A DNA stretch of 52,312 bases from a bacterium (lineage in GTDB: Bacteria > Electryoneota > AABM5-125-24 > Hatepunaeales > Hatepunaeaceae), in the NCBI GenBank assembly GCA_025774605.1, contig JALGVR010000005.1:1-52312 (forward strand). Direction: 5' to 3'. The position numbers were made by a program, and so were the translations under genes. The notes beneath the pieces were generated by a model. That model saw only the letters and a list, made by a program, of their open reading frames with translations, searched no databases and had not been told where the DNA came from. Numbering within the stretch: position 1 is the stretch's first letter; the number at the start of each line of letters is the position of its first letter. This document shows, in pieces, positions 3,839-52,312 of the stretch.

Positions 3839-5724
3839 GAGATCTCCCCCAGTTCATCGGCGAGGCGTTGGCGGTGGTACATATCGGCGTAGACACCGCC
3901 GAGCTTCATCAGTTCCTCATGGGTGCCGAATTCAGCCACAGCGCCACCCTCAAGTACTGCGATACGGTCGGCGCGCTCGGACGCGGCGAGCCGGTGAGTC
4001 ACCAGGATTACGGTTTTGCCCTTGAGCCCGGTCTTGATGTTGTTGATGATCTCGGACTCGGTGCGCGTGTCGACAGCGCTGAGGGCGTCGTCCAGGACGA
4101 GTATCGGTGGATCGAGCAACAGGGCGCGCGCCAGCGTGAGCCGTTGCTGCTGACCACCGGAAAGGGTTACGCCCCGCTCGCCGATGCGGGTGTCATATGC
4201 GTCGGGGAAATCGTCTACATCGAGGTCAAAGCGGGCCATCTGTGCCGCGTGCCGGATCTCCTGGACCGTGGCGTCGGGTTTGCCGAATGCGATGTTCTCG
4301 GTGATCGTGGCTGAAAAGAGGAACGGCGTCTGATCAACATAGCCTATCATGCGGCGCAGTCGGGATACCGGCAGTTCGTTCCAGGCCACCTCCCGCCCGT
4401 CAGCCGCCGAACGAGACTCCCGGGAGGCAGTACGTCCAGCCTCAAGCCTCGCCGGGGGCGCGAGCTCGGGAAATCCACTGAGAATCACAGTACCCTGCCG
4501 GGGTTCATACAAGCGGCTTAGTATCCGCAACAGCGTACTCTTCCCCGATCCGGTTCTGCCCACCACGGCGGTGATTTTTCCTTGCGGGAACAGCAGATTC
4601 AGATTGTCAAAGACCTGCGGTCCCTGATCGTTGTAGCTGAAACGGATGTTGCTGAACCTTATGCCGGACGCTTGAGCCTCGGACGCCGGCTGGACGGTCT
4701 TATCGTCGGCTTCATGACCATCAGCCGAGCCGTCATCATCGGAGAACTGTTCATTGACGTCGAGTATCTCCCTTAGTCGCTTGTGTGAAGCCTTGCCGCG
4801 CTGGTAGAGGTGAGTGACCCAGCCCAGTGCGATCATCGGCCAGGTCATCAACGCCAGGTAGCTCAGGAAGGCGATGAAGTCGCCCAGTCCGATAACTCCG
4901 GCGATTACTCTCTGCCCGCCGACCCACATGATACCGGCGACGCCGAACCCGATCAGCATGGTCAAGACAGGCATGAACAGCGCCTGTACCCTTGCCACGA
5001 CCATGCTGCGCTTGAAGTAAAGCCTGCAGGTGGCGGCGAATTTTTCTGATTCGCGCTGCTCGCGCACGAAGGATTTTATCACCCTTGCGCCGGAGAGATT
5101 CTCCTGGACATGCGCCTCCAACGCACCATATACCCTCTGCTGCTGCAGGTTCACACGGTGTATCGTACCGGTCAATGATATCACAACGCCGCCGATGACG
5201 GGCGCCAGGATCATCACGAGCAGCGCAAGTTTGGGATCCAGGTAGAACATCATCGCGGCGGAGAAGATCAGCGTCAGCGAGGTGGCGACCGAGAATTGCA
5301 ACGCCGGTCCCAACACCATCCTGACCCGTTCAAGATCATCGGTCGAACGCGCCATCAGGTCACCGGTCAGGCTGCGGTCGAAGAACTTCGGCGCCAGGCT
5401 GAGAAGGTGGCTGAAATAATTCTCGCGCAGGTCGCTCTCCACCCACCGTGAAGCCCCGATGACCACGCGACGCATCAGGTAACGGAAGACGCCGCCGATG
5501 AAGGCGACGATGATGATCGACCCGGCGAAGCCGTACAGCCAGCCGACAGGACGCGACGCCTGCAGGGCGTTTACGCCCGACCTGAGCAGCATCGGACCCA
5601 GGACGTCAAACGCCGAAGCCAGCGCCGCCGCGGTCAGTCCGAAAGCAAGCCGTTTGCGGTACGGTCTGGTGAATGCGGCCAGAGTGCCAATGAAGCTCGT
5701 ATCATTGAATGACATTCTCTTCAA
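3835..5724 (-). CDS. ABC exporter, fused TMD+NBD (MdlA/YheI-like half; degenerate catalytic base); ATG at 5715 is an alternative start
   Basis: TGDLMAR, Walker A GRTGSGKS, LSGGQ, Walker B LVLDD (E to D), THR H-loop. Confidence 0.92.
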   Translation of the reverse strand: MKRMSFNDTSFIGTLAAFTRPYRKRLAFGLTAAALASAFDVLGPMLLRSGVNALQASRPVGWLYGFAGSIIIVAFIGGVFRYLMRRVVIGASRWVESDLRENYFSHLLSLAPKFFDRSLTGDLMARSTDDLERVRMVLGPALQFSVATSLTLIFSAAMMFYLDPKLALLVMILAPVIGGVVISLTGTIHRVNLQQQRVYGALEAHVQENLSGARVIKSFVREQRESEKFAATCRLYFKRSMVVARVQALFMPVLTMLIGFGVAGIMWVGGQRVIAGVIGLGDFIAFLSYLALMTWPMIALGWVTHLYQRGKASHKRLREILDVNEQFSDDDGSADGHEADDKTVQPASEAQASGIRFSNIRFSYNDQGPQVFDNLNLLFPQGKITAVVGRTGSGKSTLLRILSRLYEPRQGTVILSGFPELAPPARLEAGRTASRESRSAADGREVAWNELPVSRLRRMIGYVDQTPFLFSATITENIAFGKPDATVQEIRHAAQMARFDLDVDDFPDAYDTRIGERGVTLSGGQQQRLTLARALLLDPPILVLDDALSAVDTRTESEIINNIKTGLKGKTVILVTHRLAASERADRIAVLEGGAVAEFGTHEELMKLGGVYADMYHRQRLADELGEIS

Positions 5725-13578: not shown

Positions 13579-14343
13579 CTAATTAACCTTGACCAGCAGG
13601 CCGGTCGCCTCGCCTTCGAGGTCTCGTGCGTCCAGCGGGATGCCGGTGACGATCTTGACCGGACCTACGCCGCGCGCGTACCAGACCGCCTGCCGCCTGG
13701 TTTTGGTCGTGCCGTTCGAATAGTCGTCGGTCCGCTGGGATTCGACGACGACAACATTCTTCCACCTGCCGAATTCCGTCTGCAGCTGGCATCTGTCGAT
13801 CAGCCGGTATTTCTGCCTCACATCACTCGAGAACAACTTTTTGCCGGCCCCGGAGTATATTTCGCAGTGATAGTCGTACGTGTATTCCCTGCCGCCGTCC
13901 ACGCGGGCGGGCAGCACGGTTCTCGCCGGTCTGAAGCAGGTGCTGTCGCCGTTCGCTCCGACCCGGTAAAGATGCTTCAACCCTTCAACATCCCACATGT
14001 ACGCCGACCGCGAGACGACCGTCTTGTCATCCGTGATTGTCGTGTCCACTATCAGGTAAACCTCGAGCCCATCATCCTCCGTCATGTCCGTCACCGTCAT
14101 AACACCTCGCCATACGTCGCCGCGCAGGTTCTTCCATTCAAGGGACCAGACACGATTCTCCCGGATGGGATAGTATTCCCCAAGCGAAATATCCCTGGCG
14201 AGTTTGTACGGCTGGGTTTCGGTCCTGCTTCCCCCGCAGCCTGAGATCAACAGTGTAACCGCAAGCATCAGCAGCGCACGATTCGGAAGCAGCACCGCCT
14301 TTAAGGATGTTTTTTGATACGCGGGCAATGTTTTCCAAGTCAA
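13579..14343 (-). CDS. Putative lipoprotein, beta-rich
   Basis: Lipobox LISG/C; YYP..., TEFGRW, WYARGVGPVK motifs; start uncertain. Confidence 0.7.
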   Translation of the reverse strand: MTWKTLPAYQKTSLKAVLLPNRALLMLAVTLLISGCGGSRTETQPYKLARDISLGEYYPIRENRVWSLEWKNLRGDVWRGVMTVTDMTEDDGLEVYLIVDTTITDDKTVVSRSAYMWDVEGLKHLYRVGANGDSTCFRPARTVLPARVDGGREYTYDYHCEIYSGAGKKLFSSDVRQKYRLIDRCQLQTEFGRWKNVVVVESQRTDDYSNGTTKTRRQAVWYARGVGPVKIVTGIPLDARDLEGEATGLLVKVN

Positions 14344-14420
14344 GATGGTTGTAATGTACTGAACCGTACTTCATAATATAAGCCTCAATCCTTACCGATC
14401 AAGATATTTGTGCAGTTTCC

Positions 14421-23000: not shown

Positions 23001-24474
23001 TGTTGTCCGCAGTGAACTCACCGTGGGCGTTGACGGTTATGTATATCGGGAACACGGTGTTGTTGTTTACGCCGCGGAATGAATGTTCCCAGTACTGATT
23101 GCGGGCGCGCCCGACCATGATACTCATTCCGTCGTTGAACCAGTCTGCCAGAACCGGACCGATGATCCCCCCGTTGGGATCGTTGGTGCCGTCGGTCTCC
23201 TCGATCCGGATGTCGGTAAAGCCGCGTTCCCTGAGTATCCGCTCGCCCCACCTGGTGGTATACACGATCGACATGTTGAAATCCGCCCAAGCCTGGCTGA
23301 ACACACCGGCACGGTCGAACCAGCCGGCATCCTCCATCCACGGCTCCATCTCATAGGACAGCGTTCTGGCGACGGCCAGCTCCATCATGTCCCGGTTGCC
23401 CGATCCCAGGCGGCCGATTGCCGCATCGGGAAAGAAGTCGTTCCCCTCCAGCAGGGTGTATTCATAGTCGGCGTGATCAGCCACATCCGGCATTGAAGTG
23501 TTCCCTTCGGGTGCGTACAGGTTCCACGGAGCATCCTGATGATCGTCTGACGGTCTGTCACCCAGCAGCAGTATGTATCCGAACGGATCCAGGCCGTCAT
23601 CGAGGTAATCATTATATATATCCTGGATGTCTTCGCGAATCAGGTCAACGTTCCGCGCCTCGTCATCGGTAAGGCGCAGTATGTCCACCTTGTAACCACA
23701 GCGACGCTTCCATTCGATCAGCGGTATGGCATACTGGAGGCAACTGTCGTGCGCAACGACCAGGTAATGCCCGACGTAATCACCGCCGATTTCACCCTCG
23801 TCGCGCGAGACAAGGTCAGCGTTGACCGCCAGGGCTCGCAGCATTCGAACGAACTCCGGACTGCGACCACGTCTTTGACCGGTGAATTCCACCGGATTTA
23901 CCGCTTCGCCGTCGGTAAAGCGCAGATTCAGATCGATCCGGTCGTGACGGATATAATCGCCGGTCGTCGTGTTGTACTGGACGGGATACATGGTGATCCT
24001 GACCATTCTGACCCCGCGCATTATCACCGGACCCTCTATCACAACCGGCTGAGGGGGATAGAGTCCGTCGTTTTCTTCAACCTTGCGTGAGCTCGATCCG
24101 TCCGGGGAAACGGCAGGACACAGCTGCGGTGCCGGAAGGTTATTCAACGTGACTGATGAACAACTTGTCACTTCGAGCCGAACGCCCGATCGTGGCGGGA
24201 CGATCACGTACCTTGAGACCGCCGGCAGCAGCGGAAGACCGGCATCCGTCAATCGTCCCTCCCCCTCGAGCGTGAACTCCACATGCTGTTGACCTCGCAT
24301 CTCCAGGTTGCGCATGGTTAAATCGCCTGCATCGAAGGAGACGCTGAGGCGTTGATCATTCTCTGCGTTTACCCGTGCATGAGATTCGGGAAGAGACCGC
24401 TGCCCGGCCCGCAGCGGGAGAAAAGTAAGCAGAATCGCCGGGATTACGGCGTTCAGGAGATGAAGCTGTTTCAT
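20050..24474 (-). CDS. Large secreted C25 (gingipain)-family protein with propeptide, Ig-like domains and a PNPFN-type C-terminal domain; start placed at MKQLHLL
   Basis: Signal peptide, GLPLLPAVS propeptide, EWKRRCG, ILLLGD, AIGRL, LYGDP, GPDDYGYYCYD, C-terminal QNHPNPFN...SGIY. Confidence 0.88.
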   Translation of the reverse strand: MKQLHLLNAVIPAILLTFLPLRAGQRSLPESHARVNAENDQRLSVSFDAGDLTMRNLEMRGQQHVEFTLEGEGRLTDAGLPLLPAVSRYVIVPPRSGVRLEVTSCSSVTLNNLPAPQLCPAVSPDGSSSRKVEENDGLYPPQPVVIEGPVIMRGVRMVRITMYPVQYNTTTGDYIRHDRIDLNLRFTDGEAVNPVEFTGQRRGRSPEFVRMLRALAVNADLVSRDEGEIGGDYVGHYLVVAHDSCLQYAIPLIEWKRRCGYKVDILRLTDDEARNVDLIREDIQDIYNDYLDDGLDPFGYILLLGDRPSDDHQDAPWNLYAPEGNTSMPDVADHADYEYTLLEGNDFFPDAAIGRLGSGNRDMMELAVARTLSYEMEPWMEDAGWFDRAGVFSQAWADFNMSIVYTTRWGERILRERGFTDIRIEETDGTNDPNGGIIGPVLADWFNDGMSIMVGRARNQYWEHSFRGVNNNTVFPIYITVNAHGEFTADNMFRTGDIDNLKGPAATIYSWGNPATIFNNAFYLATVSGVLAHDMSLGWARNYAGVSFPRIFQTFEDADLAMRQYQSDTDLYGDPGIKPWIGIPQPVEAAFPATVSPGTDQVEVTVYRENSDDVVRGAQVTLYHPGELPDQADYHDWQPEFMVTGKTDASGKIRLPFDPLIDGGTLYLTVTGRDIYPLLEEIEVVASDLFIAVSDYELDDSAGGNGDGVVNPGETVSLEITAANFGGGETAVDLQARIRSGSPCLSVAEHDPIRFDDLAPGGRGDGDHAVDFTVDPACPDGSEPTLYVDFSSTGFIWSSVITLDIWGTDLEVSEIEGGNLVMNEPRDLNIEIVNRGRIDAPEMTARLVSQGYGIEINRDEVQYPGIAVEERRSSNGNPFRVNVRDLAVPGTTAPMMLVFRRDDVAFDTAFFNLRVNEAQPNAPFGPDDYGYYCYDDSDDGWRLAPRYRWFEISPRTGDQDGDGTRIELFDTVQVNAAEVIALPFKMRFYGREYDTITIGTNGFIGVGDQRRMVNLQNYPVELAIGGPLGMIAPFWTRLYVGGLNRPGVYYYYDDLDQRFIVEWYNVHHENQDENLNFQVIINDPRYHVTLSGDSDILFYYKDIYQTRGPAADMPYASVGISSPDGTAGLSYTYQDTYPAGAAELGRRRAILFTTNLSYTSGATCGRVLDDATDEPLSGAKVRVYADYGIEAVSSDTTGADGEFHMTGLVGLNVDRIEVTRKGYRGVRAEADSMRENDTLDIDLYLLRPRIWLNRNEVGEFLVPGHRTSHHVGIQNSGTGPLEYIVSLGDPIEDEGSGIDREGVDRWKDCRRQVCFTSWLSIEPRSGSLAPGEWTVIRAVFDTRNLENGDYRKVIVIGDTLAQVAVELPVFLNVDGDNGSGAGPHLPPFEWSLEQNHPNPFNSSSTIEYSLKEAADVRLALYDLNGRPVRTLVDGRLPRGGHQAVIDGSHLPSGIYLCRIEAGPFTATRKMVMVR

Positions 24475-34020: not shown

Positions 34021-35754
34021 ATGAAACTGTTGCCGATTATTTTCTCAACCATATTCCTCTTCACTTCGGCTTATTCCGACAACTCACAAGCATCCAGGAG
34101 CACCAGGCGGGACCGTTACCGGGATATCGCCGTCCAGATCAAGCGGATCGGTGAAGTCATCAACGGTGTGAACGAACGCTATGTGGATCCCATTGACATG
34201 GATGAATTCATCCAGGCCGGCATCGAGGGAATGTTGAGAACGCTCGATCCGTACACCGTTTATTTCGAACCTGATCGAGTCAAGGATCTCGACGAGATCA
34301 CCAAGGGTGAGTTCTGCGGTGTGGGCATCGAAATCGGTCTGCGCGGCAAGGAGAAGGAGCTGACCGTCATATCCCCGATGCCGAACACGCCTGCCTCGCG
34401 TATCGGCATCAGAGCCGGCGACGTCATAATCGCGGTCGACGGGAAATCCACCAAGGGCTTTACCACGGCGGATGCCGCCAAGCACATCCGCGGTGAACCC
34501 GGCACGGAAGTCACCCTGACCATCAGACGCAGGTCCAACGAACAGCCTCTTGAATACACCATCGTCAGGGAGAACATCCGGGTGCACGACGTGGCCTATT
34601 CCGGGATGCTCAAAGACAACATCGGTTACATCAAGCTGGTGAGGTTTTCCAGTCATGCCGGCACCGAGCTCCGGCAGGCACTAAGGGAATTGCTGCCACA
34701 TAATCCGGCCGGTCTGATACTTGATCTCCGCTCCAACCCGGGGGGACTGCTGCCGTCGGCGGTGGATGTGTCAGAGGAATTCCTGCAGCCGAACCTGCAG
34801 ATAGTGTCAACCCGGGGAAGATACCCCCGTTCGATACGCTCATTTAAGGCGACCGCGGAACCGCTGGCGGCGGATATTCCACTCGTCGTGCTGGTGAACG
34901 GCGGCAGCGCCTCCGCGTCCGAAATCGTCGCCGGCGCGCTCCAGGATCACGACCGGGCGGTTATCATCGGCACCACAACCTTTGGCAAGGGGCTGGTTCA
35001 GTCGGTGCGCAAGCTCTCAGGCAACGCCGCGCTCAAGATCACCACTGCCCGATATTATACGCCGTCGGGACGGTTGATCCAGCGTGACCGCCACCGTGAT
35101 GAAGACGATCTGTTCTCCGCGGTTGACAGTAATCGGAGCTCTTCCGCCGGCACCGGCGAAACGACCGCTCCCGACACGAGCGGGGAGAAGTTCTACACCG
35201 ATTCCGGTCGGGAGGTGTTCGGTGGAGGCGGCATCACACCCGATATAATACTGAAACCGGAACCACTCGATCCAACCAGGGTGGAGATGTATCGAAGGGA
35301 CCTGTTCTTCATGTTCGTCGAGAACTGGCTGACCAAGAACACGCGACCGGATACGGTCGTTGTGACCGAAGAGATGCTCAGCGACTTCGACAGGTTCATC
35401 GACAGCCTTGACTTTCAGCCGCCCATACACGGTGAAGAGCAGATCGAGGCGCTGCGGGAGATCGGGCGGCATGATTCGCTGGACACCCTTTTCACGGCTG
35501 ACCTGGACCAAATCGAAGATATATTACGGCGGTCGTCGCGTGATTTCAATCCGCAGATACGGGAGTTTATCAGGCAGAGCATCGACATGGAGCTCGCCTC
35601 GGTCCTGGGTGGCAGGGAGTGGCGTATCCGCGCCTCGTTCGACGAAGACGTTCAACTGGCTGAAGCGATTGCCATACTCAAGGACAAGGCTCGGTATACC
35701 GCCGAGCTTCAGGGCGTAAGCCGTGCTGATGCCGGTGAAAACCGAACCGAATAA
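34021..35754 (+). CDS. ctpA: C-terminal processing protease, S41A family with PDZ domain
   Basis: LDPYT, GVGIEI, DLRSNPGG, SASASEIVAGALQD, TFGKGLVQ, ARYYTPSG. Confidence 0.94.
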   Translation: MKLLPIIFSTIFLFTSAYSDNSQASRSTRRDRYRDIAVQIKRIGEVINGVNERYVDPIDMDEFIQAGIEGMLRTLDPYTVYFEPDRVKDLDEITKGEFCGVGIEIGLRGKEKELTVISPMPNTPASRIGIRAGDVIIAVDGKSTKGFTTADAAKHIRGEPGTEVTLTIRRRSNEQPLEYTIVRENIRVHDVAYSGMLKDNIGYIKLVRFSSHAGTELRQALRELLPHNPAGLILDLRSNPGGLLPSAVDVSEEFLQPNLQIVSTRGRYPRSIRSFKATAEPLAADIPLVVLVNGGSASASEIVAGALQDHDRAVIIGTTTFGKGLVQSVRKLSGNAALKITTARYYTPSGRLIQRDRHRDEDDLFSAVDSNRSSSAGTGETTAPDTSGEKFYTDSGREVFGGGGITPDIILKPEPLDPTRVEMYRRDLFFMFVENWLTKNTRPDTVVVTEEMLSDFDRFIDSLDFQPPIHGEEQIEALREIGRHDSLDTLFTADLDQIEDILRRSSRDFNPQIREFIRQSIDMELASVLGGREWRIRASFDEDVQLAEAIAILKDKARYTAELQGVSRADAGENRTE

Positions 35755-35822
35755 CGCAGTCCGGCTGACCGTTCACCGGTGGAACAGGCTGTCACATCAT
35801 CTCCTTACGCCGGAATGATCAA

Positions 35823-35851
35823 GCGTCTCCCGCCTGAACGGCGGGAGACGC
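35823..35851. terminator. Perfect 12-bp hairpin after ctpA (terminator or REP-like)
   Basis: GCGTCTCCCGCC-TGAAC-GGCGGGAGACGC; no clear U tract. Confidence 0.5.
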
Positions 35852-35998
35852 GTCACTTTGACAGAACATGACCCGCCGCAATGCACTTCCAGCCGGGCCG
35901 CAATAATCTCCAGTGAATCCCACGATCGCCGGTCAAATCACCGTCGCGCGGCACCCGTCTCGAAAGTAAGAATTTTACAAATTTTTCCCTCAATCTCT

Positions 35999-36078
35999 TG
36001 CGTATGATGTGCAGTTGATTTATCTTTCGCTTGCGCATTTTTTGCACACAGATTCGCTTATTCTGCAAATTATTCGCA
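35999..36078. promoter_or_regulatory. Three phased TGC-N9-GCA palindromes (candidate regulator binding sites)
   Basis: TGCGTATGATGTGCA (35999), TGCGCATTTTTTGCA (36032), TGCAAATTATTCGCA (36064). Confidence 0.55.
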
Positions 36079-36109
36079 GTGGAACTGTCATGATAACAAG
36101 GGAGGCGGA

Positions 36110-37129
36110 TTGTCTGAGCGACCTTTAGGATGGGTTTTTCTCCTGGCCACGACTTTGCTTTTGGCAAACTGTGATTGGGATCCTGCACACGACCACATTT
36201 TAGACCCTGATAATCCTCAGTCCAGACCGTTCGGCAGCCTTAGATTAACGGTACTTACCCTGGATCAGCACCCCGTCAACAACGCTTACGCCCAGATCAA
36301 GGAGGTCGGCCGTTTCGGGACAACCGATACAAGCGGTGTGGTCTGTTTCTACGATCTGCCGGAGGGCGAATGGTGGGTTGTGGCTTACCGCAACAGTGTT
36401 CCCGATACGGTATATGCGCCCGACTCGGTGCAGGTAACCATCCGGCATTTCACCCGTACAGACACCAACCTGCAGCTTGACGCCGTACCCTCCTTTATCA
36501 ACGTCACCGTGAACTCGATAACACAGGCTGTCAATATCGACAGCAACTACATCTATGCCAGGCTGACGGCGAGGGTGTTCGATCCCGATGGAATCACCGA
36601 TCTGGACCGGGTCGAATGGAAGTTGCGGGACCTCCGAAACAACATACTGATGCATGATACTCTCGATCACTACGATCCCGATTCCGCGTATTGGTGGGAG
36701 GAGATTCCCTCCGGTGAATTTCCGGGGGGGAATCTCATAAACACGTTTACCACACCCTTCATCTTTGAATCGTATGACCATGCGGGAAATTCATCGCAGT
36801 CAACGGCTTACCTGGCCAGGATCATATACCGTCCCCCTGAACTGCGGGCGGTTGTCCAGTCAGGTCCCAAGCCGACGCTGAGGTGGAACTACAGTTGGAG
36901 CCTCGAGTTTCCCGTGCCCGAATCGTTCTACTATCTGGTCAGCATTTACGAGGTTCCCAGCGAGACACTCGTCTACCGCCGACAGCTCATCCCGGACGGC
37001 TCCGGAGAGATTTCGCATACGGTGGAGGATTCCCTTGAAATCGCCGGGACCTATCGCTGGGATGTGTGGGTGTTTGACCTTTTCGGCAACAATGCCCGTT
37101 CGCTGCGTAACGGTTTTGTAGTCGGCTGA
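36110..37129 (+). CDS. Putative lipoprotein with a carboxypeptidase-regulatory-like (Ig) domain
   Basis: GGGAGG RBS before TTG; lipobox LLAN/C; TTDTSG...LPEG.W; ARVFDPDGITD. Confidence 0.8.
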   Translation: MSERPLGWVFLLATTLLLANCDWDPAHDHILDPDNPQSRPFGSLRLTVLTLDQHPVNNAYAQIKEVGRFGTTDTSGVVCFYDLPEGEWWVVAYRNSVPDTVYAPDSVQVTIRHFTRTDTNLQLDAVPSFINVTVNSITQAVNIDSNYIYARLTARVFDPDGITDLDRVEWKLRDLRNNILMHDTLDHYDPDSAYWWEEIPSGEFPGGNLINTFTTPFIFESYDHAGNSSQSTAYLARIIYRPPELRAVVQSGPKPTLRWNYSWSLEFPVPESFYYLVSIYEVPSETLVYRRQLIPDGSGEISHTVEDSLEIAGTYRWDVWVFDLFGNNARSLRNGFVVG

Positions 37130-37153: not shown

Positions 37154-38626
37154 ATGTGCGCTGAACGAAAATATCCCCCGGGCAGCCTGGAAGCAGGTCT
37201 GAAATCGACGCCGGACGCGACATCACAGGATGAAGTAACCAGGCTGCTGAATACCACCCTCAAACTGGCGGTGGAGATGATGCAGGCCGATCGCGGCGTC
37301 ATCCTGCTGGACGAGGGCGGCAGGCTGGAGGAACTGGCGTCCTTCGATTCAACCGCCGACAGTCCGGACAGCGATATTGATTATTCGTCCAGTTCGGTCG
37401 ACATGGTTATGAAATCGGGTACACCGATATTGACTCACGACGCGTTGGCTGATCCAAGGTTCGGCGACGCTGAGAGCATCATCATGCACCAGATAACGTC
37501 CATTATCTGCACACCGATGTATCTCGAGGATCAGGTGATCGGGGTAATCTACCTTGACAGCCGTCACAACAGGCAGCGTTTCACAGAGGGCAATCTCGAC
37601 TTCGTTCACACCTTTGCCAAAATGGCGGCGATTGCTGTGGATTACGCCCGCAGAAACAAAATGTTGCACATTGAGAAACAGCGGTTGCAGAGCGAGCTGG
37701 AATTCTCCCTGAAAGATATCGTCGGGAAGAGCCCGAAGATGTCCGAGATATTCAAGCTGATTCACCGGATTGTCAACTCCGACATCTCCGTGCTTCTGGA
37801 GGGCGAGAGCGGTACCGGCAAGGAGCTGGTGGCGCGCGCCCTCCATTACAACGGTCCGAGGCGTGACAAGCCGTTTGTGGCGCAGTTCTGCGGCAACCTC
37901 GCCGAGTCGCTGCTGGAAAGCGAGCTGTTCGGACACAAAAAGGGCTCCTTCACCGGCGCGATCGCCGATAAGATGGGGCTGTTCGAGGTTGCCGACGGCG
38001 GTTCGTTCTTTCTCGATGAGATTGCCGATATCAGTCCGACCATTCAGACCAAGCTGCTGCGGGTTCTCCAGGAGGGTGAGATACGGCGTGTCGGCGATAC
38101 GGTATCTCGCAAAGTGGATGTCCGCATCATCTCCGCCACAAACAAGAGCCTCAGGGAGGAGGTTGAAGCCGGCAAGTTCCGCGAAGACCTGTATTATCGG
38201 CTGAACGTGATTACGATTAATCTGCCGCCCCTGCGTGAACGTATCGGTGATATTCCCCTGCTCGTAAACCACTATTTGCGGAAATTCGCCGAGACCAACA
38301 AGATGCCCTCCAAAAAGATCTCGCCGCGGGCCATGGAGGTGCTGGCCAACTATCATTGGCCCGGGAATGTACGCGAGCTGTTGAACACGATCGAGCGCGC
38401 CATGATTCTGTCCGATGACGACGTGATCAAGGTCGACGACCTGTTTATTCCCGAGGCGGAAAAACTCGCCACCGGCCGCAAATCACTCAAGGAGCACGAG
38501 AAGGACTACGTCCTCAAAACCCTTGAGGATTGCGGCAACAATAAGACGAAGACCGCTGAAATGCTCGGCGTTTCGCTGCGGTGGCTGCATTATAAGTTGA
38601 ACGAATGGAAGAAACCGGTCGGTTAG
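37154..38626 (+). CDS. Sigma54-dependent enhancer-binding protein, GAF-AAA+-HTH (copy 1)
   Basis: GAF (DPRF...SIICTPM...GVIYLDS), GESGTGKE, ESELFGH, GSFTGA, FLDEI, FREDLYYRL, WPGNVREL, Fis-type HTH. Confidence 0.95.
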   Translation: MCAERKYPPGSLEAGLKSTPDATSQDEVTRLLNTTLKLAVEMMQADRGVILLDEGGRLEELASFDSTADSPDSDIDYSSSSVDMVMKSGTPILTHDALADPRFGDAESIIMHQITSIICTPMYLEDQVIGVIYLDSRHNRQRFTEGNLDFVHTFAKMAAIAVDYARRNKMLHIEKQRLQSELEFSLKDIVGKSPKMSEIFKLIHRIVNSDISVLLEGESGTGKELVARALHYNGPRRDKPFVAQFCGNLAESLLESELFGHKKGSFTGAIADKMGLFEVADGGSFFLDEIADISPTIQTKLLRVLQEGEIRRVGDTVSRKVDVRIISATNKSLREEVEAGKFREDLYYRLNVITINLPPLRERIGDIPLLVNHYLRKFAETNKMPSKKISPRAMEVLANYHWPGNVRELLNTIERAMILSDDDVIKVDDLFIPEAEKLATGRKSLKEHEKDYVLKTLEDCGNNKTKTAEMLGVSLRWLHYKLNEWKKPVG

Positions 38627-40395
38627 GATCCTACCGGATTGATGCCGAGCTGGCTCACAGCAATATCTGCACGGTTTACCGCGCCTTCGAAGAGAGCCTG
38701 GGTCGTCCGGTTTTAATCAAGAAACTTCACCCGCAGATGGCGCGGGAGGAGGATATCCGGACCCGCTTCAAGCGCGAAGCCCAGGTGTGTGCCCAGGTCA
38801 AGCATGAGAACATCGTTGACATCTATGGCTACATCGCCGATTCCGATCAAACCATGCTGATTCTGGAGTTCGTCGAAGGATTGTCCCTGGGGGAGCTGAT
38901 CTCGAACTGTGTGTATATTCCCTGGCAGCCGGCGCTGGCAATACTGAGCGGTGTGCTTGAGGGTCTGGCGTTTGCCCATTCCAGGTCCGTGATTCACCGG
39001 GACATCAAGCCCGGCAACATCCTCATTTCCCTGGATGGTCAGGCGAAGATATCCGACTTCGGACTCGCCACGCTTGAGGATGCACCCAAGCTGACCAGGC
39101 AGGGAATGGTGGTCGGCACACCCGCCTACATGCCGCCTGAGCAGATTACCGGCGGGCAGATAGACCAGCGCAGCGACCTCTTCTCCCTGGGGGCGAGCTT
39201 CTACGAGGTGCTGACCGGAAAATCACCCTTCTATGCGGACAACTTCTCGGAGATCATGAAGAAGGTGTTGAATGCCCATCCGCAAAGACCGTCCGCTGTT
39301 ATTCCCGACATCCCGACTGAATTTGACCAGATCGTGCTGCGCCTGATCGAAAAGCAGCCGACCAAACGATACGCCAGCGCCGATCAGGCTTTGCGGGATG
39401 TGAAAAAACTCGCCGAGCAGAAAGACGTTAGTCTGGACAAGGACTCCGTCCGTGAATTTCTTGATCAACTGGATGTTGCTCCGGCTGGCGGCGCGAAATC
39501 ATCGACATCCATAACCGAGCCCGCTCCCCTCCGAAACAGACGGAACTATTCAACATGGCTGCTCGGCGCGATCGGTGTGACGGCAATTGTCGTTGCCCTG
39601 CTGCTTCCCGGCTCGCGAAACGACTATGTGAAACCGACTCCCCGACCATTCAACCAGATCAGTCCGCCTCCGCGGAGAGGCGCGAGTAAGACCGTGCCTC
39701 TTCAGCCGAGAGAATCAGCCGGAATCGAACGGTACTCCAAGGCGGTTGAACAGCCGAAGGCATCAGAGGGAGCCGTCTCCGGGCGGCGGCGGAATGTCAG
39801 TCGGGACACCGCAGGCGGGGAATCCAAAGTGGTTAAACCGGCGGAAGAACTGGTTGCGCACGAACCGATCGATAATCGAACCGCTCCGGTTTACCCGACA
39901 CCCTCAGCGATCGATACGACGGAACCCGGTCAACTCTTTATCTTAACCGGAAGACAATGGGCTGCAGTGACAATCGATAATAAGACAATAGGTGTAACAC
40001 CACTCACTGAACCGATCAAGCTTGCGCCGGGCAAACACCAGGTTACTTTATTCAACGACCAATTCCCCGGGCCGGTGTCTGAGACCGTCATCATTGAACC
40101 GGGAGCCGAGCAGCGGTTGGTCGTTGATCTCGAACGTTACTTTGCTGTAATTAAGGTTCTTTCAGTCAAACCCTGGGCGGAGATCTTCGTCGACGGCGTT
40201 TCCTACGGTGAAACACCTCTTAACAGACGGATAATCCTCCCGCTGGGTCAACATGAAATCGAACTGCGCAACCCGGATTTTAGAACCTGGCGGCAGGTGT
40301 TCAATTTCAGCCAGGGCGACCCCCCGGTGGAAATATCCGTGTCACTTGCGCCGCTTCAAAGCGCTGAATCGAGACAAGATCTGCTGCCGAGATGA
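38605..40395 (+). CDS. Membrane Ser/Thr (Hanks-type) protein kinase with two C-terminal PEGA-like domains (copy 1)
   Basis: VLIK, REA, HRDIKPGN, DFG, GTPAYMPPE, SDLFSLG; single TM; QWAAVTID...GVTP and PWAEIFVDG...GETP. Confidence 0.93.
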   Translation: MEETGRLGSYRIDAELAHSNICTVYRAFEESLGRPVLIKKLHPQMAREEDIRTRFKREAQVCAQVKHENIVDIYGYIADSDQTMLILEFVEGLSLGELISNCVYIPWQPALAILSGVLEGLAFAHSRSVIHRDIKPGNILISLDGQAKISDFGLATLEDAPKLTRQGMVVGTPAYMPPEQITGGQIDQRSDLFSLGASFYEVLTGKSPFYADNFSEIMKKVLNAHPQRPSAVIPDIPTEFDQIVLRLIEKQPTKRYASADQALRDVKKLAEQKDVSLDKDSVREFLDQLDVAPAGGAKSSTSITEPAPLRNRRNYSTWLLGAIGVTAIVVALLLPGSRNDYVKPTPRPFNQISPPPRRGASKTVPLQPRESAGIERYSKAVEQPKASEGAVSGRRRNVSRDTAGGESKVVKPAEELVAHEPIDNRTAPVYPTPSAIDTTEPGQLFILTGRQWAAVTIDNKTIGVTPLTEPIKLAPGKHQVTLFNDQFPGPVSETVIIEPGAEQRLVVDLERYFAVIKVLSVKPWAEIFVDGVSYGETPLNRRIILPLGQHEIELRNPDFRTWRQVFNFSQGDPPVEISVSLAPLQSAESRQDLLPR

Positions 40396-41057
40396 AAACA
40401 GTCCGATACCTGAAACTGCTGTTGAGTTCGCTGGTATTCCCCCAATATTGCCCATCCTGCGGCAGGGAGTGGACAGGAGGGGCGGGGTGGCTCTGTCCGG
40501 ACTGCTGGCTTAATCTGCCCGCGGCGGGAAGAGGGTACTGGCGGCACATGCCGCGGCTGAGAGACAGGGTTATAACAGCCTTCCGGTACAACGAAACAAC
40601 ACGCGAGCTTACCCACCAGATGAAGTTCAACGGCCGCGTTGACATCGCCGTGGAGCTGGGGGGCAGGGTGGCCCGCCGGATCATGGATTTGATCTCCCCG
40701 GGGGATATCGCCGCCGTCGTGCCGGTGCCGCTGCATCCGACGCGAATCAGGGAGCGCGGCTACGACCAGAACCTCGTTCTCTCCCGCCGCATCGCCGAAG
40801 GACTCAACCTCCCCCTCCGTACCGGATTGATCAGGAGGGTGAAGCATCGACCACCCCAGTCGCGCCTTTCCAACCTGGAGAGACTGACAAACCTGAAAGG
40901 CGCGTTTCGACCGGATACATCCTCCGGGACGAAGATTGACGGTGCAGTCCTGCTGGTGGATGACATCATTCACACCGGCGCCACAGCCCTGAGCTGCATC
41001 GATGCACTATCCAGGATGGGGATCAGCGACGTCAGGGTGTTGGCGGCGCTTGGCTGA
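40392..41057 (+). CDS. comF: ComF family phosphoribosyltransferase-like competence protein
   Basis: CPSC...LCPDC, PVPLH, RERGYDQ, LLVDDIIHTGAT; ATGA overlap with the kinase stop. Confidence 0.9.
   Translation: MKTVRYLKLLLSSLVFPQYCPSCGREWTGGAGWLCPDCWLNLPAAGRGYWRHMPRLRDRVITAFRYNETTRELTHQMKFNGRVDIAVELGGRVARRIMDLISPGDIAAVVPVPLHPTRIRERGYDQNLVLSRRIAEGLNLPLRTGLIRRVKHRPPQSRLSNLERLTNLKGAFRPDTSSGTKIDGAVLLVDDIIHTGATALSCIDALSRMGISDVRVLAALG

Positions 41058-51071: not shown

Positions 51072-52312
<1,241 letters not shown>

Follow-up and report, generated by a model that had tools for sequence, protein, structure and literature searches.

The window analyzed here is a stretch of 52,312 nucleotides, in which the region of interest lies between an S41/PDZ peptidase gene (34021-35754), its upstream neighbor, and a gene for a 339-residue lipoprotein (36110-37129, forward strand). 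The lipoprotein gene is the first gene of an operon. Its TTG start is preceded by a ribosome-binding site, GGGAGG, that can be read from the sequence at 36100-36105 (forward strand), 4 nt before the start, and its product has a lipobox cysteine, after which comes a conserved WDPPHDNPxDP stretch. The protein matches no Pfam or NCBIfam family, and the gene was found in all 15 other genomes of the family as well as in 8 of 45 genomes from other families in the phylum. After 24 bp, there follows the gene of a bEBP with GAF, sigma-54 AAA+, and Fis-type HTH domains (37154-38626, forward strand), an order that we observed in the examined loci wherever the locus extended far enough and that all 15 other genomes of the family preserve. 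The bEBP gene overlaps by 22 bp with a gene for a Ser/Thr protein kinase with C-terminal PEGA domains (38605-40395, forward strand), which in turn overlaps by 4 bp with a gene for a ComF-like phosphoribosyltransferase (40392-41057, forward strand), probably the last gene of a four-gene operon. On the other side, 3' of the S41 gene, the sequence contains a GC-rich 10-bp inverted repeat (GTCTCCCGCC / GGCGGGAGAC, 5-nt loop; 35825-35849, forward strand). This repeat has no T tract and is not called by the terminator scan; the upstream transcript may end here.

Three TGC-N9-GCA words stand in a row ahead of the lipoprotein gene, namely box 1 (TGCGTATGATGTGCA, 35999-36013), box 2 (TGCGCATTTTTTGCA, 36032-36046), and box 3 (TGCAAATTATTCGCA, 36064-36078). 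An earlier note on this DNA had taken them for a helically phased array, and its description of the words proved accurate: The boxes start 33 and 32 bp apart, all three carry AT at positions 6-7 and T at position 10, and 31 bp lie between the end of box 3 and the TTG start at 36110. Its caveat holds as well, as a -24/-12 scan of 35755-36110 returned no sigma-54-like promoter. A genome scan for clustered words identified this as the single triple within 100 bp among 660 matches in the 2,827,581-bp genome. The loose word is not enriched in the window (18 occurrences versus 15.8 ± 3.6 expected; 30 of 100 shuffles reach 18), and at least three occurrences arose in 15 of 20,000 (0.075%) first-order Markov simulations of the 355-bp intergenic region.

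Sixteen genomes of the family (Ca. Electryoneota/Calditrichota-like), the window's own among them, were compared in the region ahead of the orthologous lipoprotein-bEBP operon. A common architecture emerged in all 16 regions: TTGNNN, a spacer of exactly 17 bp, TANNNT, and then, after 3 to 9 nt (mostly 6 to 7), i.e., in the start region, a dyad-symmetric site. In the window, these elements are the -35-like hexamer TTGCGT (35998-36003, forward strand), which doubles as the left arm of box 1; the -10-like hexamer TATCTT (36021-36026, forward strand; TATCTT in 8 of the 16 regions); and the dyad CGCATTTTTTGCA (36034-36046, forward strand), which lies within box 2, begins 7 nt after the -10, and is followed by CAC. 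The dyad has the form YGCA-N5-TGCA, usually followed by YAC in the orthologous regions, and its GCA-N5-TGCA core is present in 16 of 16, in surroundings that have otherwise diverged and next to lipoproteins whose identity falls as low as 35%. A 20-position weight matrix built from the 16 orthologous sites returned the window's own dyad as the best match in the genome, at 26.2 bits.

From conservation alone, we infer a sigma-70-type promoter ahead of the regulator's own operon, with transcription predicted to start near 36033. A scan with the E. coli sigma-70 consensus calls no promoter at the conserved TTGCGT-17-TATCTT, missing the -35 because TTGCGT matches three of the six positions of TTGACA. 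By an ad hoc weighting of the sigma-54 consensus, no -24/-12 candidate was conserved in position across the 16 regions. In another family, three loci (L018, L021, and L023) carry an imperfect TGCA-N5-TTCA element that is placed before the -35 and not on the start, and the recognition helix of their bEBPs is unchanged despite this shifted, imperfect element. In a further relative (L005, genome G011), an insertion of ~90 bp at about -120 to -15 from the lipoprotein start separates the dyad from the start codon; it consists of a long perfect inverted repeat, AACAGGGGGACAGTATACCTATTTT...AAAATAGGTATACTGTCCCCCTGTT, and is MITE-like or terminator-like.

Elsewhere in the genome, the dyad was found near genes for secreted proteins. 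Of the 11 best distinct non-self matches to the matrix (at least 15 bits), we sorted ten by context, the eleventh being on C107. Four of the 11 (on contigs C70, C159, C58, and C80) flank five giant C25-like genes on their 5' side, whose products combine Propeptide_C25 (four of five), Peptidase_C25, and CarboxypepD_reg or an InhA-like MAM domain, with a T9SS sorting tail in three of the five. Likewise, four of the 11 (C70, C97, C58, and C147) have a sigma-54-like promoter 65 to 157 bp away that points away from the site. Among the remaining matches, the dyads on C132 and C24 fall inside ORFs according to crude gene calls, that on C23 looks coding, and that on C81 sits in a 3' gap. Further intergenic dyads precede a gene for an S8 subtilase with an FlgD-Ig tail and a gene for a 526-residue T9SS-tailed protein. 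The target on C97 is a 125-residue ORF without a Pfam family, which recurs in one of five relatives as a 40-residue match broken by a stop codon. No recognizable -24/-12 promoter stands beside the strong dyads on C159, C80, C106, and C13; those on C106 lie upstream of a sigma-70-like TTGACT-17-TATATT and fit poorly to a pure enhancer role. The genome holds 20 C25 matches in ~2,400 genes, and strong dyads stand ahead of a subset of these; most other C25 genes, including the window's own C25-like gene (~23290-24378, reverse strand), have no upstream dyad.

The association depends on the spacing of the arms. Upstream of C25 genes, YGCA-N5-TGCR occurs 8 times in 9,041 bp versus 0.74 expected, and the same arms at spacings of N2-N4 and N6-N10 yielded 0 to 3 occurrences. 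At the 21 best -24/-12 candidates, GCA-N5-TGC was present at -115 to -45 in four cases, with 0.32 expected and 0 to 2 found for the control spacings N2-N4 and N6-N10. Where a dyad and a -24/-12 site occur together, the distance is mostly 70 to 81 bp, as on C58, C97, and C147 and in the relatives' loci L056, L065, L068, L111, and L116. Across all intergenic DNA, we counted 30 YGCA-N5-TGCR words versus 10 to 16 for each of N3, N4, N6, N7, and N8. Inside ORFs, there were 201 versus 87 to 126 for N3, N4, and N6-N8, an approximately twofold excess for which we have no explanation. These ORF-internal dyads occur in many genes and in each of the three codon phases, and they form no repeated 13-mer family.

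Two further observations concern individual contigs. On C91 (~5277-5700), a -24/-12-like site, TGGTATGTTATTTGCA, is followed by a gene for a type IV pilin-like protein (N-terminus FTLIEVLVVV...), and two GCA-N5-TGC dyads stand 178 to 198 bp upstream of that site; the gene may be a target of the PilR type or may belong to the regulon as well. On C58 (~14040-14400; L049/L055), the long leader of a C25-like gene contains four to five tandem units of ~17 to 19 bp that end in ...TTCGTTCAGAATGACA, and a near-identical stretch occurs upstream of the lipoprotein operon in another genus (G012, L010, at about -360 to -300 from the lipoprotein start). This tandem unit may be a REP/MITE-like repeat shared across genera.

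The link between the dyad and sigma-54-like promoters recurred in relatives. We surveyed 31 upstream regions of C25-like genes, representing 30 loci, two of them from the window's own genome. A dyad of at least 13 bits was present in 8 of the 31 regions, six of which had a sigma-54-like promoter downstream, at distances of 70, 70, 80, 80, 121, and 157 bp, whereas 3 of the 23 dyad-free regions had such a promoter (Fisher p = 0.0026; 0.0077 when the loci of the own genome are excluded; relatives are not independent samples). Each of the 16 family genomes contains 11 to 37 C25-like matches. This C25 expansion takes the form of giant genes of 1,300 to 2,000 codons that encode a C25 propeptide, a partial C25 domain, and CarboxypepD_reg, and one of them lies in the window.

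Two other sets of targets were followed. In two relatives, the small SLT gene that follows the C147 site has kept its -24/-12 promoter, and in one of these a GCA-N5-TGCA stands ~80 bp upstream of that promoter. Three of the six relative SLT loci have neither the dyad nor the -24/-12 element; L098 and L099 are paralogs, and L097 lies in another genomic context. A further locus, L094, is cut by the contig end. In L098 and L099 (genomes G003 and G011), the SLT-domain paralogs directly follow a GvpA-like gas-vesicle gene. Genome G015 contains 12 dyads with the AT spacer, six of them intergenic by crude gene calls and six within called ORFs. The intergenic ones precede genes for Ig-repeat proteins, a gene for a T9SS-tailed protein, and a small ORF, with -24/-12-like sites at distances of 74, 80, and 252 bp.

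Which protein binds the dyad can be approached through the bEBP encoded in the operon itself. Its Pfam matches comprise Sigma54_activat (PF00158; E = 2.9e-69), GAF (8.7e-20), and HTH_8 (9.6e-11), and it carries GESGTGKE as its Walker A motif, GSFTGA as the loop that contacts sigma-54, and SLRWLHYKL as its recognition helix. An rpoN gene is present on contig C41. By its domains, its Walker A motif, its GSFTGA loop, and the presence of rpoN, the protein is predicted to be sigma-54-competent. Its best NCBIfam match is NifA (4e-124; 415 bits versus a cut-off of 529), and all 25 models listed among the 29 that match, including NifA, NtrC, AtoC, and NorR, fall below their cut-offs. AT-spacer dyads occurred at a density of 5.4 per Mb in genomes of the own family, 4.2 per Mb in genomes of other families with the module, and 2.2 per Mb in genomes without it, as compared to 1.15, 1.10, and 0.81 per Mb for a reversed control word; the difference between genomes lends weak support to this bEBP as the binder and is confounded by phylogeny and base composition.

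We propose that the dyad serves both as an autorepression operator on the sigma-70-type promoter and as an enhancer of a secreted-protein regulon, bound in both roles by the operon's bEBP, a reading of the sequence comparisons to which we assign a probability of roughly 0.55. The sigma-70-type promoter would drive the operon of lipoprotein, GAF-AAA+-HTH activator, Ser/Thr kinase with PEGA domains, and ComF-like protein. A bEBP dimer would then bind 36034-36046 via its Fis-type HTH and block RNA polymerase, yielding negative autoregulation: The dyad covers the predicted start of the promoter, and its occupancy should therefore block initiation. The same bEBP would use the dyad elsewhere as an upstream activating sequence for the sigma-54 holoenzyme, with the dyad center ~87 to 97 bp before the predicted start of the sigma-54 promoters. 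Candidate targets are the C25 gingipain-like giants, the S8 subtilase, other T9SS-tailed proteins, and the lytic transglycosylase. Judging from gene order alone, signals could plausibly enter through the GAF domain, the adjacent Ser/Thr kinase, and the lipoprotein. In this scheme, the conservation, the positions, and the genome-wide associations of the dyad are observed, and we infer from them the identity of the binding protein, the transcription start, and the sign of regulation.

The most serious alternative, albeit an unlikely one, is that the dyad is real and bound by another regulator that controls secreted-protein genes, either one of the 12 bEBP paralogs or an unrelated factor, with the operon as merely one of its targets. 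TGCA-type half-sites are common in the bEBP family, and the genome has 13 clear bEBP genes, so another paralog could bind the dyad; several dyads also have no adjacent -24/-12 promoter. Moreover, a second bEBP gene in the window (51495-51998, reverse strand; recognition helix SRRYLQKTL) sits at the contig end, and its upstream region lies beyond it. Against this alternative stands, in the first place, the presence of the dyad in the promoter of the lipoprotein-bEBP operon in 16 of 16 genomes. Furthermore, among the 13 bEBP genes, the operon's own is the single one with a dyad match of at least 12 bits within 4 kb upstream, in a search where the contig ended sooner for four of the genes. The recognition helix also tracks the operon: SLRWLHY is invariant in all 14 orthologs whose locus extends to the helix, and it differs in all 10 aligned paralogs. 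Lastly, only bEBPs are known to activate sigma-54 promoters from such upstream positions. The dyad is very likely a binding site of the downstream bEBP.

It is improbable that the conserved block is instead an intrinsic promoter element, such as a discriminator or an initially transcribed region, or a structured 5' leader RNA. The block always comes right after the -10 hexamer, as such an element would, and a long hairpin (-19.7 kcal/mol) is possible in the leader. However, this fold is no better than that of shuffled sequences (z = -1.59; 16 of 200 shuffles fold as well), and the stem formed by the dyad alone would comprise 3 to 4 bp. No Rfam family was detected in 35500-36400, where the best match was noise (mir-96, E = 0.66, 18.7 bits versus a gathering threshold of 65). 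The palindrome also recurs away from such promoters, 70 to 81 bp upstream of -24/-12 sites and ahead of C25 and T9SS genes.

Still less probable is the reading in which the three phased TGC-N9-GCA dyads form an NtrC-like enhancer, where three dimers would assemble into a hexamer that activates a sigma-54 promoter of the operon. The spacing of the three words, the uniqueness of the triple in the genome, and the approximately whole helical turns between the relatives' auxiliary dyads and the main dyad speak in its favor; yet it is largely refuted by the ortholog comparison. The TGC-N9-GCA register occurs at the box-2 position in 4 of 16 regions, limited to those whose left arm reads TGCGCA, as opposed to 16 of 16 for GCA-N5-TGCA. 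Box 1 (forward strand) has the -35 hexamer as its left arm, and its right arm is present in this register in none of the 15 relatives, such that box 1 appears to be essentially the -35 hexamer plus an unconserved right arm. One relative, L006, carries a different N5 dyad in which its -35 serves as the right arm. Box 3 (TGCA-N7-CGCA, forward strand), which lies in the 5' leader and is centered 31 bp downstream of the main dyad, is shared by 1 of 15 relatives, namely the nearest one, L003 (CGCAAATTTTTCGCA, at +32), and scores below 12 bits on the N5 matrix. An array of three equal sites is thus not what is conserved: The N5 dyad within box 2 persists, and boxes 1 and 3 do not. The same holds for a local enhancer, as a -24/-12 element is conserved in none of the 16 regions, neither at this locus nor in the 15 relatives, and the boxes lie between the promoter and the start codon and not upstream of a promoter. 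Of the two roles that the note had offered, that of an autoregulatory operator fits the dyad, and that of an enhancer, taken as serving a sigma-54 promoter at this locus, is not supported.

Some tandem arrangement does exist in the leaders. The main dyad is present in 16 of 16 regions and a second clear dyad in 6 of 16, at varying places; the other 10 have a single clear leader dyad (setting aside a doubtful N7 match in L007), which speaks against a conserved array of three dimers. Four relatives other than L003 carry a second N5 dyad, at +21, +21, +40, and +41, against an expectation of 0.37 for the 1,441 bp of leader. The auxiliary dyads of the six genomes thereby lie 21, 21, 31, 32, 40, and 41 bp from the main dyad. 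The suggestion that the sites share one DNA face is partly supported because these distances, from relatives that are not independent samples, fall close to two, three, and four helical turns; the places themselves are not conserved. Box 3 may thus act weakly as an auxiliary site within the 5' leader, and in the scheme of an operator and enhancer bound by the operon's bEBP, box 3 and the second dyads of the relatives would be weaker auxiliary sites on the same face of the DNA. The striking triple palindrome resolves into a -35 hexamer, one real, if predicted, operator, and one lineage-specific site.

Least probable of all is that the dyad is itself a degenerate sigma-54 promoter, with a right arm, TTGCA, that looks like a -12 element: In 2 of 16 regions (L010 and L012), the -24/-12 scan gives the dyad and its flank 16.5 of 21, but the two GCA arms of the dyad lie 9 bp apart where the consensus has 11 bp, and we rejected this candidate because the near-invariant -24 GG directly precedes the dyad in 1 of 16 regions.

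Returning to the dual role of the dyad under the operon's bEBP, a broader and more tentative hypothesis can be formulated. In Ca. Electryoneota and related Calditrichota-like bacteria, the module of lipoprotein, GAF-bEBP, and PEGA-kinase could act as the master switch for an arsenal of secreted proteins, comprising the C25 gingipain-like giants, the S8 subtilases, and the Ig-repeat T9SS cargo. The bEBP would represent a previously undescribed subfamily, characterized by the recognition helix SLRWLHYKL and the site YGCA-N5-TGCA, that receives its signal from an envelope lipoprotein and a kinase of the eukaryote-like type in place of a histidine kinase, and that activates T9SS cargo via sigma-54 as it throttles itself at a sigma-70 promoter. 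We regard this wider picture as doubtful in its full extent.

The uncultured lineage is thought to live by protein degradation (PMC9324843), and the available text of this description reports abundant S8 proteases and makes no mention of sigma, T9SS, or C25 (PMC9324843). In the literature searched, we found no paper connecting T9SS cargo or C25 peptidases of the lineage with sigma-54 or bEBPs, and no account of how its C25-like protease arsenal is controlled. With the predicted regulon of the YGCA-N5-TGCA dyad, a possible phylum-level regulatory circuit gains a 13-bp site, one candidate for the regulator, and a set of candidate target genes.

The closest known parallel is NtrC (NRI) at E. coli glnA/glnL, where a Fis-type HTH binds 17-bp dyads with TGC/GCA arms. 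NtrC sites act as enhancers for a sigma-54 promoter and as repressor operators where they overlap sigma-70 promoters, that of its own gene included. The double use as enhancer and operator, here predicted, the TGC/GCA arms, and the Fis-type HTH are common to both systems. The site differs, as the NtrC dyad spans 17 bp with another arm spacing, compared to the 13-bp YGCA-N5-TGCA, and so does the signaling, where NtrC has a receiver domain and a histidine-kinase partner in place of a GAF sensor and a neighboring Ser/Thr kinase. According to the available text of a study on Caulobacter NtrC (PMC10274813), one bEBP can both activate and repress, and repression of its own operon by a bEBP is well established for the class (PMC10274813). 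As described there, Caulobacter NtrC lacks GAFTGA and acts at sigma-70 promoters, whereas the bEBP here has GSFTGA and candidate targets with -24/-12 elements; its regulon was measured by ChIP-seq and RNA-seq, whereas the present one is predicted (PMC10274813). Against the NCBIfam ntrC model, the bEBP scored 334 bits, far under the cut-off of 559.

NifA, the best NCBIfam match, is likewise a GAF-AAA+-HTH protein, and its dyad enhancer, TGT-N10-ACA, lies upstream of -24/-12 promoters. The three-domain architecture and the upstream dyad enhancer are thus shared, but the dyad here is YGCA-N5-TGCA, the bEBP score lies below the NifA cut-off, and the candidate targets comprise secreted proteases and surface proteins with no nif genes among them. 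In the pspF-pspA system, the enhancer sites of PspF overlap the activator's own sigma-70 promoter, which leads to negative autoregulation; the logic of self-repression is alike, whereas PspF lacks a sensor domain and is encoded in a divergent gene pair. The LuxO site, TTGCA-N3-TGCAA, is likewise a short dyad of TGCA arms, although these are 3 bp apart and in the opposite orientation, and neither PspF nor LuxO regulates T9SS cargo genes. The site described here thus differs from the NtrC, NifA, and LuxO motifs, and we predict it to be the operator and enhancer of an uncharacterized bEBP subfamily.
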